Source of the DNA: Escherichia phage REP5
Length of the DNA: 64,000 nucleotides
Sequence record: OQ174504.1
Strand: one strand, 5' to 3'
The notes under the pieces were generated by a model, which was not told the origin of the DNA, made no database searches, and saw nothing but the letters and a program-made list of their open reading frames with translations. Shown here in pieces: positions 1,425 through 53,842 of this stretch (position 1 is the first letter of the stretch; the number at the start of each line of letters is the position of its first letter). The translations under genes were made by a program, and so were the position numbers.

Positions 1425-1470
1425 TATAAATTTTCCTCTTAAAAGGGGCTATCAAGCCCCTGTAAAGAAA

Positions 1471-2643
1471 TTAAGCTGTTCTCTGCCATACATACAGGAC
1501 GAAGGATGGCTGTTCAATATTAACTGCCTGACCTCCACCAACACTATTCGTATTACCACTATGTGTATGCTCAGAAGAAGAGACTGTCACAGTACCACTG
1601 TGTGTATGTGAACCAATACCGACTGTGTGGCTGTGAGCACCAATACCGACTGTGTGGCTGTGGTCACCGGATGCACCAGATGTAACACTAAAGCTATGTG
1701 AGTGTGCACCGTCACTAGATGTTCTTGATGTCCTTCTTGCACCGCCACCATCAGAGTCAGCTACAGCATTACCAGTACCATCATTCTCTCTAGGATACAC
1801 ATCATGGTTGTGAGTACCATTTGTGCTTGTGTTACCTGATACATTGTGTGTATGGTTGCCAGTTGTGTTAGTAGCTTTTGTTCCATAGTCAAAAGAGTTG
1901 GTAGTCTTAGTTCCATAGTCAAAAGCTGAGATTGACACAGTTGCATTATGAGTGTGGCCACCACCACTAAGTGATACAGAGTGGGAGTGTTGAGGCATAT
2001 TATTAACTGACAGAGTGACAGTTGAAGCACCAAATACAGAACCTGCTGGTCTTGCATCAGAGGCATAACCAACCAATGCCCTACCTTTTGAAACCAACTC
2101 CCAAGTACCTCCACAAATTAAATATGTAGAAGGATTTGCAGAGTTCATAGAAAGATGGATAGTACCTACTGGATAAGAAGCCTGAACAGCCTTGTACAAG
2201 TTATTTACTGCTCTTGCTGTAGCATACTTATCTGCATCTTCGTTATACAGGTTAGATGTTGTCCAGTTCTGAACATTACTCAAACCAACCTGTGCCTTAG
2301 TTGTATTGTGCGGATTACTCTTATCATTAATATGCTGTTGAACAAGGCTATTAACCTCTTCGGAAGACATAATCTGTAGATTTGCTCTTGCCTCAGCTAC
2401 ATTAACAATATCTGATAAGTTATTTGCAGCAACTAACTGAAGAGCGTTAATAACATTATCTAAACCAATTTGTGTTTTAGTAACACCATGAGGGTTATTT
2501 CTCAGGCTTGAGTGTGGAGCAAGTAATTGCTCAAGAGTGCATCTCTTATCCTCAATACCCTGCTTAAGATGGAAGATATCACTAAGGTCAATTGGTAAGG
2601 CTGCTTGAGGCAAGGCACTAATTTGAATTTCACCTACCGCCAT
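1471..2643 (-). CDS. tail fiber protein with collar-like domain and His-rich HxH repeats
   Basis: 390-aa ORF; duplicated NPHGxTKxQxGLxNV motif; collar-like segment IHLSMNSANPSTYLICGGTWELVSKGRALVG; C-terminal HSHS/HTHN/HSHT repeats. Confidence 0.65.
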   Translation of the reverse strand: MAVGEIQISALPQAALPIDLSDIFHLKQGIEDKRCTLEQLLAPHSSLRNNPHGVTKTQIGLDNVINALQLVAANNLSDIVNVAEARANLQIMSSEEVNSLVQQHINDKSNPHNTTKAQVGLSNVQNWTTSNLYNEDADKYATARAVNNLYKAVQASYPVGTIHLSMNSANPSTYLICGGTWELVSKGRALVGYASDARPAGSVFGASTVTLSVNNMPQHSHSVSLSGGGHTHNATVSISAFDYGTKTTNSFDYGTKATNTTGNHTHNVSGNTSTNGTHNHDVYPRENDGTGNAVADSDGGGARRTSRTSSDGAHSHSFSVTSGASGDHSHTVGIGAHSHTVGIGSHTHSGTVTVSSSEHTHSGNTNSVGGGQAVNIEQPSFVLYVWQRTA

Positions 2644-2645
2644 TA

Positions 2646-10688
<8,043 letters not shown>

Positions 10689-32115: not shown

Positions 32116-32143
32116 AGGCTCCTTCGGGAGCCTTTTTTATTTT
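32116..32143 (+). terminator. rho-independent terminator after endolysin
   Basis: GGCTCCTTCGGGAGCC followed by TTTTTTATTTT. Confidence 0.7.
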
Positions 32144-42630: not shown

Positions 42631-43011
42631 TTAGTTAATTTTGAAAATTGTCACATAACCATCACTGCCGATTATTTGAGACACTCCAGCTTTTTCCACT
42701 TGATAGCCCATATTTTCAAGATGATAAACAGCATCATCGTAACCATATGCGCCGCCCTGATAACGTCTCTTATTGCATTTTATCAGGTTTTTACCACGTC
42801 CAGCAAGCGCATTCAGTACGGCTTTTTCACTTGAAAGAGTACCGTCTAACATGGTTGCCGTGTAATGGTTAATCCTGTTACCATTTACGTCATATTTAAA
42901 ATTGAATGCGTGAACAACAATCAATTTGCCGTTAAATTTTTCATCAAGTGACTTCTCCAGTGCGTTGCGGAAGTTGTCTTTGTTGATGAATTTCGGTGCA
43001 CGATAAGCCAT
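42631..43011 (-). CDS. hypothetical protein
   Basis: 126-aa ORF. Confidence 0.45.
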   Translation of the reverse strand: MAYRAPKFINKDNFRNALEKSLDEKFNGKLIVVHAFNFKYDVNGNRINHYTATMLDGTLSSEKAVLNALAGRGKNLIKCNKRRYQGGAYGYDDAVYHLENMGYQVEKAGVSQIIGSDGYVTIFKIN

Positions 43012-43307: not shown

Positions 43308-43348
43308 TTTTCAGTTCTCCAGTTTAGGAAGTGGGCTTGTCGCCCCGT

Positions 43349-43377
43349 CTGATGCAGATACTATAAAAACCCGTTCA
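43349..43377 (-). promoter_or_regulatory. sigma70-like promoter for the small-gene cluster
   Basis: Minus-strand TTGACT, 17-nt spacer, TAGTAT, with AT-rich upstream tract; ~40 nt upstream of first gene. Confidence 0.35.
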
Positions 43378-43565
43378 AGGAGTCAATAAAAATTTTAAAA
43401 ATATTTTTGGCAAAAATGTAATGAAACGGGCGCACGCGACTACCACAAAACAGAACTACAATCAAGAATTATTTTTCAATCCGCTACAAATTTTTATGTT
43501 GACTTTTCTTTTCAGATGTGGTAGCCTCGTGAGAAATGGCGACATCCCCACCTACACCCACCTAC

Positions 43566-43742
43566 CTGCACAATTCTAAAATGATTTTTCTTGCCCGACC
43601 TGATTTTTATCTGCACGTTTTGAAAATGAAAAAGCTCTTTGGAGATTACCTGCACAGTTTGAAAATGAATTTTCTCTTTGGAGTTCAAAATTCTCTCTAC
43701 AGATTTCTCTATAGAAATCTACCTGCACAATCCTGAAATGAA
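43566..43742. repeat. four ~20-bp direct repeats CTGCAC(A/G)NTTNTGAAAATGA(A/T)
   Basis: Copies at 43566, 43611, 43650, 43723; CTCTTTGGAG also recurs twice between them. Confidence 0.6.
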
Positions 43743-43814
43743 AAAGCCCTCCTTACCTGAAAAATTTACCAGATAAGAAAGGCTTAACCTATTGTGAATA
43801 TCCTACAGAGTTTC

Positions 43815-44600
43815 TTAGTTATTTGCGTCTAAGAAGGTAACTTCTGGTGAAGAGAAGATTGCCCCAATATCCTCATCAGTTCTTGCATAGATGTAGGCAT
43901 CTGCATCACTGCCAAATGTTACTGCAATCCTGTGATTGCTCTTCGACAGGTGGGTAACTAGAGCGTTACTTAGAGACATCTTTTCAACCGGAGGGTTACT
44001 TTGATGTACCTTACCTTTTCTTCGTCTGAAGAGGGTAACTGCATTATCTGAGAACACTGCTACGCCTGCAAAGTATTCTGGTTCACAGTAGTTCTTCCAA
44101 CCTGAGTGTAACTCATTATACATTTTTGCTTCATAGACATACAGATAAACATCTACACTCTTCATTGCCTGATTAATGATAACTGTGACAGCTTGAGGGT
44201 CAAGTCCACCGATACCTGCGCCAATCATAGGTAACCCAACTTTCTTCAACTGATTAACTTCACAGTATCTGTTAAGTTGCTTCAAAGATGACTCTAAAGC
44301 ACTGTAACGGGCATCTTTACCAGTCTTAAGCTGAGTGTAAAGATTAGCTATACGACCTTGTTTTAAACGCGCTACAGAGAAATTACCTAGTAAATTTTCA
44401 CAGGGTTTGTGGCCTATACCACCTGCATACAGATAAACTTCTGTATCGGTCTCATATGCTTTTGGGTAAAGTTTAGAAATCTTAGCAGCGATACCTGCAC
44501 CCATTAAGTTCATACAGTTGCAACCGTGACCAATGATATCAAACTTACCCTTATCAAATGCGGAGAAGATATCCCCATTGATGATTTTTACAATACCCAT
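43815..44600 (-). CDS. macro-domain (ADP-ribose-binding/processing) protein
   Basis: 261-aa ORF; N-terminal IVKIINGDIFSAF..DIIGHGCNCMNLMGAGIAAKI resembles macro-domain P-loop region. Confidence 0.5.
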   Translation of the reverse strand: MGIVKIINGDIFSAFDKGKFDIIGHGCNCMNLMGAGIAAKISKLYPKAYETDTEVYLYAGGIGHKPCENLLGNFSVARLKQGRIANLYTQLKTGKDARYSALESSLKQLNRYCEVNQLKKVGLPMIGAGIGGLDPQAVTVIINQAMKSVDVYLYVYEAKMYNELHSGWKNYCEPEYFAGVAVFSDNAVTLFRRRKGKVHQSNPPVEKMSLSNALVTHLSKSNHRIAVTFGSDADAYIYARTDEDIGAIFSSPEVTFLDANN

Positions 44601-45614: not shown

Positions 45615-45880
45615 TGCTGTTTGTTTCCTAATAAAATCATATCAATAAGGTTATTAGCTTTGATTGTGCACTGGTAAAAACCATCACGATAAAACTCAAG
45701 GGCTGCTGCTACATCACTGCCTGTGCTCCCTTTGATAGTATACCGTGATTCTTCTTGAGTGTACTTATCACTCTCACTTACTTGGGAGTTTTTGAATGTA
45801 CTGTTCACTTTGTTCGTTGAACACCCTGACATAATTATCAGTAACACAAACATTATAAAATTCTGGCTTAGTTTTTTCAT
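45611..45880 (-). CDS. lipoprotein, o-spanin-like
   Basis: 89-aa ORF; signal peptide with lipobox-like IIMSGC; start overlaps 3' end of upstream membrane-protein gene in another frame. Confidence 0.35.
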   Translation of the reverse strand: MKKLSQNFIMFVLLIIMSGCSTNKVNSTFKNSQVSESDKYTQEESRYTIKGSTGSDVAAALEFYRDGFYQCTIKANNLIDMILLGNKQQ

Positions 45881-46121
45881 ATGTTAGTACCTCTTTTGTA
45901 TGCTTATTCTTAGCAAGCACATCTTTCAAATCATTTTTGTAATTGGTGCTCAGTGTGACTAAACCTTCCTGATAAGCATCTTTAGCAACACTTATTAGCT
46001 TCTCATTATTTAGCTCAGCTTCAGCAACTTGATAGTCTCTGTAAGAGTATCCTCCCCAGACACCTGCTCCAACTAAGAAAACAATTATGAAAGTAGCTTG
46101 ACAAAACTCTTTAAATGTCAT
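45774..46121 (-). CDS. membrane-anchored protein, i-spanin-like
   Basis: 115-aa ORF; N-terminal TM FIIVFLVGAGVWGGYSY then charged helical region; RBS AGGAG. Confidence 0.4.
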   Translation of the reverse strand: MTFKEFCQATFIIVFLVGAGVWGGYSYRDYQVAEAELNNEKLISVAKDAYQEGLVTLSTNYKNDLKDVLAKNKHTKEVLTYEKTKPEFYNVCVTDNYVRVFNEQSEQYIQKLPSK

Positions 46122-46140
46122 TTAACAATCTCCTGAAATG

Positions 46141-46164
46141 AAAAAAGGCTCCCGAAGGAGCCTG
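46141..46164 (-). terminator. rho-independent terminator
   Basis: Minus-strand hairpin GGCTCCTTCGGGAGCC followed by TTTTTT. Confidence 0.6.
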
Positions 46165-46168
46165 TGTA

Positions 46169-46981
46169 TTATTCTTGACTGTAATAGTTGACAAGTGAAA
46201 TCGCTTGATTCATCAACAACTTATCAGCCTGTGCTCCGCGACCAGCTTGTAATGCCAGTTGGTATACCTCTGTAACATATTTGTTAGACATACCTTCACA
46301 GTAGTCATTATAGTCTTCCCAAAAGGAAAATGCAGCATCACCATATAGGCGTAGTGTAATTAACATTGCTGCACGAATCCCAGAAGAATATTTCCGTTTT
46401 GCGTTTACTACACCTTTAAGCTGTACTTCAAGAGAATCAATTTGTTCCAGCTCATTTTTAAAGTCGTTAAGATATTTAACTGTTTCAGTGTTAGATACTT
46501 GTTGTACACCGTAGTATGCAGCAACATACTTAATAGCAGTTGCCCAAGATGCTTTCATCAGTTCTGACTCTGGGTTGAAAGAAATCATCTTCATATTTCC
46601 GTAATAAACTTCTGAAGGTTTTTCTCTTGCTAACTCAGAGTCAAAATGAGTGTACAAATCTGTGACATCCAATATGGAGTTCACATGGTATATAACTACA
46701 ATCAAGTTTTCTGGTCGTGTCAGGTTACCAACTTTCCATGCCTCTCGACGTGAGTGCCCATCAATGATGAACAGTGAACTGCCGAACTTAGCCACATGGA
46801 CTACTGTTTGGTCTGGTGATACGTCACCATTAAGGTGTTTACTTTTCAGACGCTTAAGTGTATTTCGTTGACGAGGGTTTTCTTTGTAACGTTTTTCATT
46901 AAGAAAATCCTCGACACTGATAATCTTAGTGTGAATTTTAACAACCTTGCCATTCAGTGCTACATTGATGCTGTTTGCCAT
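46169..46981 (-). CDS. ParB-like N-terminal domain protein
   Basis: 270-aa ORF; KENPRQR (box-I-like) and IIDGHSRREAW (GxxRxxA-like) motifs. Confidence 0.5.
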   Translation of the reverse strand: MANSINVALNGKVVKIHTKIISVEDFLNEKRYKENPRQRNTLKRLKSKHLNGDVSPDQTVVHVAKFGSSLFIIDGHSRREAWKVGNLTRPENLIVVIYHVNSILDVTDLYTHFDSELAREKPSEVYYGNMKMISFNPESELMKASWATAIKYVAAYYGVQQVSNTETVKYLNDFKNELEQIDSLEVQLKGVVNAKRKYSSGIRAAMLITLRLYGDAAFSFWEDYNDYCEGMSNKYVTEVYQLALQAGRGAQADKLLMNQAISLVNYYSQE

Positions 46982-46992
46982 AACTTGATACC

Positions 46993-47877
46993 TTAGTTGT
47001 GGATAATTACTTCGTTAATATCTTTGCTTCTCTGTGCATGTATTGTGTATGAATGGCTAACCTCTGTCAAGTTAAAATTTTCAGGAATTAGTTTTGCCCA
47101 TCCATCCCACTGAGAGTTTGACATCAAAACTTTAGAGCCTAACTCCCCCCAAGAAATCATATCTTCGCATAATTTTACAGACATCTCAATGTCAAACTTT
47201 GCACCATATTTCTGGTTGGTGTTGATATACGGGGGGTCACAGTAAATAACTGTGCCTTCTCCATGTTTTATGTCAACCCTGTCATAAGGTTCACTGCTAA
47301 GTATTACCCTCTCATCAGTGATAAAACTGTAGAACGCGGATAGTGATTCTTTAGTTTTTGTGAAGAAAATCTCTTCTTCCAGTAAATACCCACAAGGTGT
47401 TGCATAGTGACCTTTCATCTCTTTAGTAGTCTGCCATACACCACCAAAACTTAGTTTTTGAAGGAAAAACTGTCTGGCGTAGTACCTGTAGTCATATGCT
47501 CCCTCTTCACCAAGCAAAAGAAGTTCCTCTCTTACACTGTAATACATTTTATAGCGTAGACGGTTATGACGCTGGCCTTTCACGGCATACTCTTCCTGCA
47601 TAGGTAAGGCTAAGTACCTCTTTGACAAGTACTCAAATTCTTCCATGAAGTTCTCATAGTCATCTCTGAAAGTTGTGTAAAGACCTATAATATGTTTATT
47701 TATCTCATTAATAAACACTTTTGCCTCTGGATATCTGTTATAAGCCCATATAGCTACTGAACCACCACCTGAAAACAGGTCATAGAAGTTTGTACAGTTG
47801 TCTGGAAAGACACCTAAACGCTCATACTCTTTTAATATTCTTGTTTTACCACCAAGATATTTGAACATCGGCTTCAT
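46993..47877 (-). CDS. dam: DNA N6-adenine methyltransferase (Dam-like)
   Basis: 294-aa ORF; motif I FSGGGSV and motif IV DPPY. Confidence 0.75.
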   Translation of the reverse strand: MKPMFKYLGGKTRILKEYERLGVFPDNCTNFYDLFSGGGSVAIWAYNRYPEAKVFINEINKHIIGLYTTFRDDYENFMEEFEYLSKRYLALPMQEEYAVKGQRHNRLRYKMYYSVREELLLLGEEGAYDYRYYARQFFLQKLSFGGVWQTTKEMKGHYATPCGYLLEEEIFFTKTKESLSAFYSFITDERVILSSEPYDRVDIKHGEGTVIYCDPPYINTNQKYGAKFDIEMSVKLCEDMISWGELGSKVLMSNSQWDGWAKLIPENFNLTEVSHSYTIHAQRSKDINEVIIHN

Positions 47878-47894
47878 TAATACTCCTTGAAATT

Positions 47895-47918
47895 TAAAAA
47901 GGCTCCCGAAGGAGCCTG
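47895..47918 (-). terminator. rho-independent terminator
   Basis: Minus-strand hairpin GGCTCCTTCGGGAGCC followed by TTTTT. Confidence 0.6.
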
Positions 47919-47928
47919 TATCTTAACC

Positions 47929-48393
47929 TTAACCGAGGACTTTAGCAAGGATATTCGCAGCCATCGAAGAAGCTTTTGCAGCAGCAACTACGCCAGCTTT
48001 GACAGTGCTATCCTTAATAGCAGATACCGTTGCAGCATCAGTAAAGAGATAAGTGATTGTTTTAGAACCACTTGTAAAGGAAAGCATAAGAGTAGTTTCC
48101 AGATTGAAAGAGCGATACGGAGCACCTTCTTTAACGATACCTTCAGCACCTAACTCTGAAGCCTTACCCATATCATAGATAGTCATCAGGTTTTCTTTGT
48201 GTGCAGTCGTTGAACCAGCACCTTTTACGTGTTTTTTAACATTCAACAATGCACGATATTCACGAATGCTGCCATCAGCTTTTACATTAACAGCACGGAA
48301 GATTTTACCCTCAAAGTTGCTCTTGATAATGTTACGAACTACTTCAGATTTGTTTTCCGTAACGTCCAGTGCTACCGTAATGATATTGTTCAT
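47929..48393 (-). CDS. hypothetical protein
   Basis: 154-aa ORF with RBS. Confidence 0.4.
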   Translation of the reverse strand: MNNIITVALDVTENKSEVVRNIIKSNFEGKIFRAVNVKADGSIREYRALLNVKKHVKGAGSTTAHKENLMTIYDMGKASELGAEGIVKEGAPYRSFNLETTLMLSFTSGSKTITYLFTDAATVSAIKDSTVKAGVVAAAKASSMAANILAKVLG

Positions 48394-48402
48394 AAGTTTC
48401 TC

Positions 48403-49624: not shown

Positions 49625-49683
49625 TGGTTCTCCTGTTTAGTTTATCGTGACAACAATTATACAGCACTCTGCACAAAATACAA

Positions 49684-49710
49684 ATAAAAAAGGCCGCCGA
49701 AGCAGCCTTT
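49684..49710 (-). terminator. rho-independent terminator after rIIB-like gene
   Basis: Minus-strand hairpin AGGCTGCTTCGGCGGCCT followed by TTTTTTATTT. Confidence 0.55.
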
Positions 49711-49724
49711 TAAGAAATTACTTA

Positions 49725-53817: not shown

Positions 53818-53842
53818 TTAAAAAGGCTCCCGTAGGAGCCTC
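53818..53842 (-). terminator. rho-independent terminator
   Basis: Minus-strand hairpin GGCTCCTACGGGAGCC followed by TTTTT. Confidence 0.6.

Follow-up and report, generated by a model that had tools for sequence, protein, structure and literature searches.

What does a ParB-like protein do beside a DNA methyltransferase in a virulent phage? The question is raised by two adjacent genes at positions 46,169 to 47,877 of a 64,000-nucleotide (nt) stretch of Escherichia phage REP5 (OQ174504.1; this whole stretch is called the window below). One encodes a methyltransferase of 294 amino acids (aa), the other a 270-aa protein that a first-pass annotation had described as a ParB N-terminal-domain protein. 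The genome belongs to a virulent, Felix O1-like myovirus (genus Felixounavirus), and over this region it shows 100% identity to Escherichia phage REP7 (OQ174506.1). The two genes form one terminator-bracketed cassette of 1754 bp, for which the best-supported reading is a DNA-modification module. Some functional link between the 270-aa protein and the methyltransferase is probable. A more specific proposal is tentative, and we would place it just short of probable: as a partner of the methyltransferase, the 270-aa protein would bind nucleotides, act on DNA and recruit the enzyme, activate it or make it processive.

Both genes lie on the minus strand, which reverses the order given in the first-pass annotation: the methyltransferase gene is upstream and transcribed first, and the ParB-like gene follows downstream. 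Nor does each gene have its own terminator, as had been claimed; hairpins were found only outside the pair, at 47917-47900 and 46163-46146, and the genes themselves are separated by 11 nt. The terminator scan detected no hairpin or terminator-like site in this spacer, so that the two genes appear to be read as a single transcription unit. A Shine-Dalgarno-like TAAGGT lies in the spacer and overlaps the methyltransferase stop codon, and the two genes are probably translationally coupled.

The 294-aa protein is, judged by its profile matches and motifs, a D12-class (alpha-type) N6-adenine DNA methyltransferase. It matched the entire 253-position Pfam profile PF02086 (D12-class N6-adenine) with 83.7 bits (gathering threshold 22, E = 2.2e-23), and the motifs K-Y-L-G-G-K (residues 6-11), FSGGG (35-39) and DPPY (214-217) follow each other in alpha order. 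It also matched PHROG 56 'DNA methyltransferase' (8.8e-53) and the PADLOC model MTase_II (1.4e-30), along with orphan-methyltransferase models, and its best solved relative is DpnM (2dpm, E = 6e-8). The earlier description as a Dam-type enzyme holds for the D12 class and the DPPY motif, but not for Dam itself: the protein scored below the NCBIfam cut-off of the Dam subfamily TIGR00571 (99.4 versus 114.85) and far under that of the E. coli Dam equivalog NF008152 (23.9 versus 441), and we rejected a Dam orthologue on these curated thresholds. Furthermore, the window contains not a single GATC site, compared with approximately 181 predicted by dinucleotide shuffling and 205 by a Markov estimate; GGCC, CCGG, CATG and CTAG are depleted in it as well (observed/expected 0.46-0.67). 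Avoidance of GATC is a known trait of the genus, described for VpaE1 and Alf5 (PMC4690856, PMC5477317). Such a genome would offer no substrate to an enzyme specific for GATC, so the target is probably another motif. Action as a GATC Dam on phage DNA is unlikely, and with zero substrate sites in the window we rejected this reading. Compared with orphan Dam-family enzymes of phages (T4 Dam, DpnM-like), the 294-aa protein shares the D12 class, the alpha order, the DPPY motif, the setting in a virulent phage and the lack of a recognizable cognate nuclease, and differs in falling below the Dam subfamily cut-off, in its GATC-free genome and in having a ParB-fold gene alongside.

The 270-aa protein carries the two motifs quoted in the first-pass annotation, KENPRQR (33-39) and IIDGHSRREAW (72-82). 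A search for a ParBc domain, which had been suggested as a check, was negative: PF02195 (ParB_N/ParBc) gave no match even at E <= 1, and neither did any other Pfam or NCBIfam model at this level, nor any model in PADLOC. Against PDB sequences, phmmer returned only de novo designed TIM barrels (down to E 0.002), which we judged to be spurious. The protein belongs to PHROG 2615, 'unknown function', and is 'hypothetical' in every GenBank record with annotation listed. A word-indexed homologue search found two near-identical proteins only, and an exhaustive HMMER search was needed to reveal the family, which comprises 501 cluster representatives (E <= 1e-3), most of them between 250 and 350 aa in length. 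Its consensus reads (D/E)NPxQR(D/N)…HL…(L/I)DGH(S/T)Rxx(A/L)W…LYxxFD(S/N)xxAxET. In 82 aligned members G75 and R78 are invariant, R39, H49, D74, H76 and W82 are conserved in at least 90%, and the Q38/R39 pair of the NPxQR element is conserved across the family. A scan of 185,579 bacterial species genomes, with a narrower alignment and exact motifs required, yielded 2 loci only, which fits a family almost restricted to phages. The longest members showed no informative domain fusions on search. At the family level, too, none of the 82 members matched PF02195 or any other ParB-related Pfam model (E <= 0.01), their profile matched no solved structure among the PDB sequences, and hhalign gave a probability of 0.9% against a small alignment of canonical ParB proteins (Bs, Mx, Tt).

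Structure prediction gave a different picture from the domain searches, and the ParB assignment therefore stands for the motifs and the modelled fold, but not for a domain recognizable by sequence. A very confident AlphaFold2 model computed with the family alignment (predicted local distance difference test score, pLDDT, 96.0; predicted template modelling score, pTM, 0.85) consists of an N-terminal alpha/beta domain (residues ~1-115) and an all-helical C-terminal domain (~120-270). When compared with the PDB by Foldseek, its ranks 1-10 contained ParB-CDP (6sdk), the Caulobacter and Myxococcus ParB proteins and PadC, with probabilities of 0.94-1.00, and further structural neighbours were KorB, sulfiredoxin, DUF262 proteins, pNOB8 ParB and Atu1540. 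In the viral structure library BFVD, the matches beyond family members were DndB-like proteins, Noc, a ParB-like nuclease and GmrSD N-terminal domain proteins. In the model, ENPRQR (34-39) comes after the first long strand, as does box I of ParB (NPxQPR), and the GxxRxxA element, G75-H-S-R78-R-E-A81, sits at the junction of strand 69-74 and helix 76-84 (beta3-alpha2), like ParB box II. By topology, these elements would be equivalent to box I and box II, and R78 would correspond to R80 of ParB. On the predicted fold and the motif geometry, we place the 270-aa protein in the ParB/sulfiredoxin (Srx) superfamily, outside PF02195. PF14072, PF03235 and TIGR03187 were not matched by the protein, and in place of a DGQ(H/Q)R motif it has DGHSR, with DGH(S/T)R family-wide.

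Doubts about a partition system had already been voiced in the first-pass annotation and proved justified. The window holds no open reading frame (ORF) with a ParA-type Walker A motif (KGGxGK(S/T)), the annotation of the region lists no ParA, and there is no parS-like repeat around the genes, where the sole repeat is the duplicated terminator. Pfam detected no helix-turn-helix (HTH) domain in the 270-aa protein, and a weak C-terminal HTH_23 match was obtained for only one of the 82 family members. The N-terminus, MANSINVALNGK, is devoid of the ParA-activating LG(K/R)GL motif. What the protein has in common with ParB of canonical ParABS systems (Spo0J, P1 ParB) is the fold of the N-terminal domain, with NPxQ(P)R-like and GxxRxxA-like motifs at the same topological positions; the differences are the lack of ParA, parS, HTH, LG(K/R)GL and profile similarity to canonical ParB, together with the virulent phage genome, and on these grounds we rejected the partition reading.

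The evidence for a link to DNA modification comes from the gene neighbourhoods of the family. Relatives were collected from annotated phage genomes and IMG/VR, ORFs were called in a uniform, simple manner, and Pfam scans were run on the 80 immediate and 76 second neighbours of 41 representatives (<=60% identity). The commonest immediate neighbour was a DNA methyltransferase, found for 12 of the 41 representatives and belonging to PF01555 (N6_N4) in nine cases and to MT-A70, D12 and an N6_Mtase-like type (the latter in GEP101) in one case each. All 12 are encoded on the same strand as the family member, with junctions ranging from small overlaps to 106 nt, and their catalytic motifs comprise DPPY, NPPF, SPPY, SPPF and DPPW. 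Methyltransferases were thus concentrated at the directly adjacent position (12/80 immediate versus 2/76 second neighbours, Fisher p = 0.0097), which argues against coincidence. In 13 IMG/VR loci, an SNF2-family helicase (~455-497 aa), a family member (~280-295 aa) and an N6_N4 methyltransferase (~315-343 aa) occur in conserved order with often overlapping junctions; the SPPF motif of this methylase suggests an N4-cytosine enzyme. Other arrangements were observed in further phages. Three consecutive genes of cyanophage Syn19 (Syn19 locus 1565-4032) encode an R.RsaI-like endonuclease, a methyltransferase and a family member of 364 aa, and in S-CAM4 a methyltransferase ORF begins 6 nt past the family member. 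Raoultella phage Ro1 has a family member (hmmsearch 1.4e-13) two genes away from a D12 methyltransferase that is 28% identical to the 294-aa enzyme. The S-RIM2 cyanophages have a D12 methyltransferase, 27% identical to the 294-aa enzyme, with a DUF6551-like DGQHT protein ahead of it and a ResIII/SNF2 helicase after it (Synechococcus phage S-RIM2 locus 1449-4658). Felixounavirus itself has a second cassette, in which an NPPF methyltransferase not related to the 294-aa enzyme accompanies a paralogue with 26% identity. The first-pass annotation's suggestion of a DNA-modification module is supported by homologues that adjoin unrelated methyltransferase families and by documented fusions and partnerships of ParB-fold proteins (PMC12704722, PMC13229309, PMC10164549).

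Several such systems have been described. According to a PF02195-based survey of the ParB-CTPase fold from 2025, this fold is often fused in phages to N6_N4 and other methyltransferase domains, and the proteins bind CTP, ATP or GTP and were suggested to play an anti-defence role (PMC12704722). The family of the 270-aa protein is not detectable by PF02195 and so would have escaped that survey. ParB domains, N6-adenine methylases and SNF2 ATPases also recur together in polyvalent proteins of phages and conjugative elements, and some ParB domains nick DNA (PMC5512222). A study from 2026 reported that a subclass of phage thymine dioxygenases acts on double-stranded DNA only with the aid of a stand-alone ParB-like protein encoded next to the enzyme (PMC13229309), and DpdB, a ParB-fold ATPase, is required for the insertion of preQ0 into DNA by DpdA (PMC10164549).

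The ParB-fold/methyltransferase fusions (PF02195 with PF01555 or Methyltransf_23; the 'ParB-methylase' Bce_0392) resemble the REP5 pair in combining a ParB/Srx module with a methyltransferase in a phage, without ParA, and PF01555, the fused methyltransferase type, is the commonest neighbour of the relatives of the 270-aa protein. An anti-defence role of the fusions is suspected (PMC12704722, PMC5512222). The REP5 pair differs in its separate genes, the lack of PF02195 recognition, the D12 class of the methyltransferase and a His instead of Glu in box II. With 5mYOX176 and ParB176 it shares a stand-alone phage ParB-fold protein, without a canonical DNA-binding domain, beside a post-replicative DNA-modifying enzyme; there, ParB176 activates the dioxygenase and the pairings are cognate (PMC13229309). 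In that system, however, the enzyme is an iron/2-oxoglutarate dioxygenase and the ParB proteins are PF02195-detectable and keep a ParB-type C-terminal dimerization domain; moreover, the 5mYOX dioxygenases are nearly inactive alone, whereas natural variants of the Felixounavirus cassette keep the methyltransferase without its partner. In overall architecture, the 270-aa protein resembles DpdB, and the structural neighbours of the two overlap (PadC, pNOB8 ParB, sulfiredoxin, Atu1540) (PMC10164549). It is set apart from the DpdB, DndB, SspE and DUF262 group by DGH(S/T)R in place of DGQQR or DGQHR and by the lack of similarity at the level of hidden Markov models, and those proteins belong to bacterial defence or modification systems and not to cassettes of lytic phages. 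The pair is best read as a variant of the phage ParB-fold/methyltransferase association that is split into two genes and has diverged in sequence.

For the 270-aa protein we infer binding of a nucleoside triphosphate (NTP), binding of DNA, a physical or functional coupling to the methyltransferase and an anti-restriction role, which could act together as follows. The conserved NPxQR and GxxRxxA elements would serve to bind an NTP, and the protein would contact DNA, probably in dimeric form via its helical C-terminal domain. Bound to DNA, it would recruit the methyltransferase, activate it or render it processive, so that newly made phage DNA would be methylated fast and fully at a non-GATC motif and would escape host restriction. 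Such a mode of action would be similar to that of DpdB with DpdA, or of the ParB activators of phage thymine dioxygenases. As natural variants exist that have the methyltransferase only, the partner would enhance methylation and not be essential for it.

Methyltransferases are a main route by which phages escape restriction, and they set limits to host range where phages are used in therapy or biocontrol; how a rapidly replicating phage genome is methylated with sufficient speed is poorly understood. If the proposed role is correct, the principle of a ParB-fold activator of a DNA-modifying enzyme, known from DpdB/DpdA and ParB/5mYOX, would extend to ordinary methyltransferases and tie their activity to the emerging theme of ParB-fold NTP switches that drive DNA modification. 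A dedicated ParB-fold loader or activator of methyltransferases would constitute a new layer of control and provide a function for a large family of 'hypothetical' phage proteins. A still wider proposal, which we regard as doubtful, is that PHROG 2615, together with its relatives (no fewer than 500 clusters at the 50% identity level), represents an unrecognized phage-specific branch of the ParB/Srx superfamily whose members load or activate, generically and in trans, methyltransferases of at least four unrelated families and which, joined in many phages by an SNF2 helicase, would make up a three-part apparatus that protects phage DNA by rapid methylation. If the association were not functional, the cassette would hold an ordinary accessory orphan methyltransferase beside an early gene of unknown function.

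The genus offers natural controls for this question, namely phages with no cassette, the complete cassette, the methyltransferase only or a frameshifted partner, which makes it directly testable. The full cassette region was covered in 13 of 254 matching records of related phages, the remainder matching the flanks only. Phage JH2 represents the empty site: its spanin gene adjoins the 154-aa gene, and the terminator that separates the two is present in one copy only. Among the relatives, the 270-aa protein is 97-100% identical while the DNA of the region is only ~90% identical, and this higher protein identity, together with the retention of the pair in 13 phage records, indicates that both genes are real. 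The 270-aa protein was found at >=95% identity in 13 records and the methyltransferase at >=80% in 14; among the records carrying either protein, this cassette's 270-aa gene was always accompanied by that of the methyltransferase. Two unannotated records labelled 'Campylobacter phage A132/A126' (MG065664.1, MG065668.1) carry the cassette at 97.8% identity, and the presence of a Felixounavirus cassette makes their host label or assembly doubtful. A recent foreign origin of the cassette was rejected, its GC content of 0.37-0.39 equalling that of the flanks and the genome's avoidance of GATC being shared by the cassette.

The second accessory cassette occurs in a few Felixounaviruses, GEP101 and ESCO56 among them, between rIIB and a 182-aa gene (GEP101 locus 2926-4955; ESCO56 locus 6098-7483), and it is absent from the equivalent position in the window (~49625-49724). 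It holds an NPPF methyltransferase-like gene, a 279-aa ParB-fold paralogue with the motif IDSHAR and a 77-aa ORF. The paralogue is homologous to the 270-aa protein (26% identity, E 2e-13), while the methyltransferase, which has a weak N6_Mtase match and is annotated as 'rRNA large subunit methyltransferase' in ESCO56, is unrelated to the 294-aa enzyme. This cassette is bracketed by variants of a related hairpin, AGGCTACTTCGGTAGCCT and AGGCTGCTTCGGCGGCCT. With the same or related hairpins bracketing two cassettes, the terminators look like recombination hot spots for the gain and loss of accessory genes.

A number of observations weigh against an activator role for the 270-aa protein. For the majority of representatives (27 of 41), neither the first nor the second neighbouring gene on either side encodes a methyltransferase, and some of these members are surrounded by genes for replication or recombination (polA, clamp loader, Rad52, metallophosphoesterase). 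Among the loci with an adjacent methyltransferase, several come from one related group, that of the SNF2 trio, and this kinship means that the independent events number fewer than 12. ESCO56 keeps an intact methyltransferase, while an internal deletion has reduced its 270-aa gene to ~85 nt of the 3' end (ESCO56 locus 3222-3377), and in Shigella phage Tf, again with an intact methyltransferase, the 270-aa gene is split by a +1 frameshift. From these two variants, the methyltransferase is probably functional alone and the partner at most an enhancer. The Tf frameshift consists of one extra A in an A-run near codon 33, resulting in ORFs of 42 and 243 aa (Tf locus 1201-2014), and may be a sequencing error; for ESCO56, an alternative is that the paralogue of the second cassette substitutes for the deleted partner. 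Furthermore, the position of the catalytic Glu of ParB box II (GERR) is taken by His76, conserved in at least 90% of the family, which makes NTPase chemistry uncertain. Finally, sequence-level homology to any characterized ParB, DndB or DUF262 family was absent from the Pfam, NCBIfam, PADLOC and profile comparisons.

The 270-aa protein could instead have an independent function, as an NTP-binding protein in phage replication or recombination or in anti-defence, and be linked to the methyltransferase only through the gathering of accessory early genes at recombination-prone terminators. The prevalence of relatives away from methyltransferases, several of them among polA, clamp loader, primase, Rad52 and phosphoesterase genes, would be explained in this way, as would the persistence of the methyltransferase without its partner and the use of terminator hairpins as evident insertion hot spots by two different cassettes. 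We nevertheless consider this unlikely, given that methyltransferases are enriched at the adjacent and not the second position, invariably in the orientation of the family member and with junctions that are short or overlap, that they stem from unrelated families in unrelated phage groups, and that ParB-fold/methyltransferase fusions are known (PMC12704722). An improbable alternative is a regulator, an NTP-modulated DNA-binding transcription factor acting on cassette, host or phage genes in the manner of DndB in the dnd operon, KorB or HerB (YfjB, F plasmid). Such a protein would combine an N-terminal ParB fold with a helical C-terminal domain, as modelled here, and the BFVD matches include DndB-like 'DNA-sulfur modification-associated' proteins; DndB is itself a regulator encoded with a DNA-modification operon (PMC12704722, PMC10164549), and HerB reprograms host transcription (PMC13370423). 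The near-complete lack of HTH matches in the family speaks against it, however, and there are no operator-like repeats around the cassette besides the terminators, where the distance from the upstream terminator to the methyltransferase start is too short for a promoter.

Two further readings assign a nuclease activity to the 270-aa protein. Together with the methyltransferase it might form a pair resembling a restriction-modification (R-M) system or serving the degradation of host DNA, in which an NTP-regulated nuclease or nickase attacks unmethylated DNA of the host or of competing phages and the methyltransferase protects the phage genome. Selfish R-M units typically have M before R in tight linkage and form small cassettes that are present in some genomes and absent from others, as seen here; the observed losses, always of the partner (ESCO56, Tf) and never leaving the partner alone, follow the sole order that would be safe for an R-M system; and ParB/Srx domains with nicking or DNase activity have been reported, including the ParB-methylase Bce_0392 and Osa (PMC5512222). 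Yet the association of one protein family with many unrelated methyltransferase families, at least four of them and with different specificities (N6-adenine and probably N4-cytosine), argues mainly against a nuclease, as it ill fits one whose specificity has to match that of the methylase. In addition, 27 of the 41 relatives have no methyltransferase nearby, Syn19 already possesses a genuine R.RsaI-type endonuclease beside the methyltransferase and the family member, the 270-aa protein matched no restriction-enzyme model in PADLOC, and no known nuclease motif was found in a search that did not cover the SspE EHxxP and HNH motifs in detail. We therefore hold this reading to be decidedly improbable. 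Even less likely is homing-type mobility, with the 270-aa protein as a nuclease that spreads the cassette to cassette-free relatives during co-infection and the methyltransferase as cargo or self-protection. The cassette is indeed a free-standing insertion between conserved genes with a patchy distribution (13/254), two cassettes with homologous ParB-like genes occupy two intergenic sites in one genus, and an abundance of homing endonucleases has been reported for this genus (PMC5477317). But the ParB/Srx nucleases described so far are sequence-nonspecific (PMC5512222), the family is often part of conserved multi-gene operons, unlike a mobile solo gene, and recombination between the duplicated terminators explains the boundaries of the cassette. 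Set beside these alternatives, a DNA-modification module remains the reading that we prefer.

The boundaries and further features of the cassette are listed in Table 1. Its ends coincide with two 46-nt direct repeats of 85% identity spaced 1754 nt apart, each containing the 18-nt hairpin AGGCTCCTTCGGGAGCCT, which is present in four copies in the window. The upstream copy terminates the 154-aa gene; the downstream copy sits 3' of the 270-aa gene, directly ahead of the Rz-like spanin gene. The methyltransferase gene has a Shine-Dalgarno sequence, AAGGAG, 5 nt ahead of its ATG. Only 22 nt lie between the stem of the upstream terminator and this ATG, so expression of the cassette would occur via read-through or from a promoter within the upstream gene. 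The sigma-70-like match in the 3' end of the methyltransferase gene could allow some independent expression of the 270-aa gene; with 24 promoter-like matches in the region compared with 20.4 +/- 4.0 in shuffled sequence, there is no excess, which makes this match weak.

Table 1 Features of the methyltransferase cassette and its surroundings in the window.
Feature	Coordinates	Strand	Remarks
Methyltransferase gene, 294 aa	46993-47877	-	ORF fills this part of the reported span exactly
Predicted ParB/sulfiredoxin-fold protein gene, 270 aa	46169-46981	-	ORF fills this part of the reported span exactly
Spacer, 11 nt, TAA-GGTATCAAGTT-ATG	46982-46992	-	Methyltransferase stop to 270-aa gene start
Upstream boundary, 46-nt direct-repeat copy with terminator hairpin AGGCTCCTTCGGGAGCCT (47917-47900) and T-run	47888-47933	-	Terminator scan, repeat search
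Downstream boundary, second 46-nt direct-repeat copy with identical hairpin (46163-46146) and T-run	46134-46179	-	Terminator scan, repeat search
Sigma-70-like promoter match TTGACA-17-CACAAT, in methyltransferase 3' end	47042-47070	-	Promoter scan, consensus match only
Upstream 154-aa gene	47929-48393
Rz-like spanin gene	45774-46121
Further copy of the 18-nt hairpin	32116-32133	+
Further copy of the 18-nt hairpin	53824-53841	-	1 mismatch

The 5' ends of the 270-aa and 154-aa genes are alike (46955-46986 versus 48367-48398, 32 nt, 72% identity), as are the N-termini of their products (MANSINVAL and MNNIITVAL, respectively). This likeness may be due to chance or may be a trace of the recombination that built the cassette.

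Further along the window, no tRNA genes were found between positions 43000 and 49000, and a stretch of ~500 nt (43308-43814) is devoid of long ORFs, the two strands having only short ones that overlap. At the end of this stretch is a long hairpin terminator (43785-43744), located upstream of the region of a macro-domain gene. This 261-aa gene (43815-44600, minus strand) is annotated as 'phosphatase' in REP7 and JH2 and as 'O-acetyl-ADP-ribose deacetylase' (macro domain) in ESCO56 and GEP101, and going by these labels it may be relevant to ADP-ribosylation-based defence.

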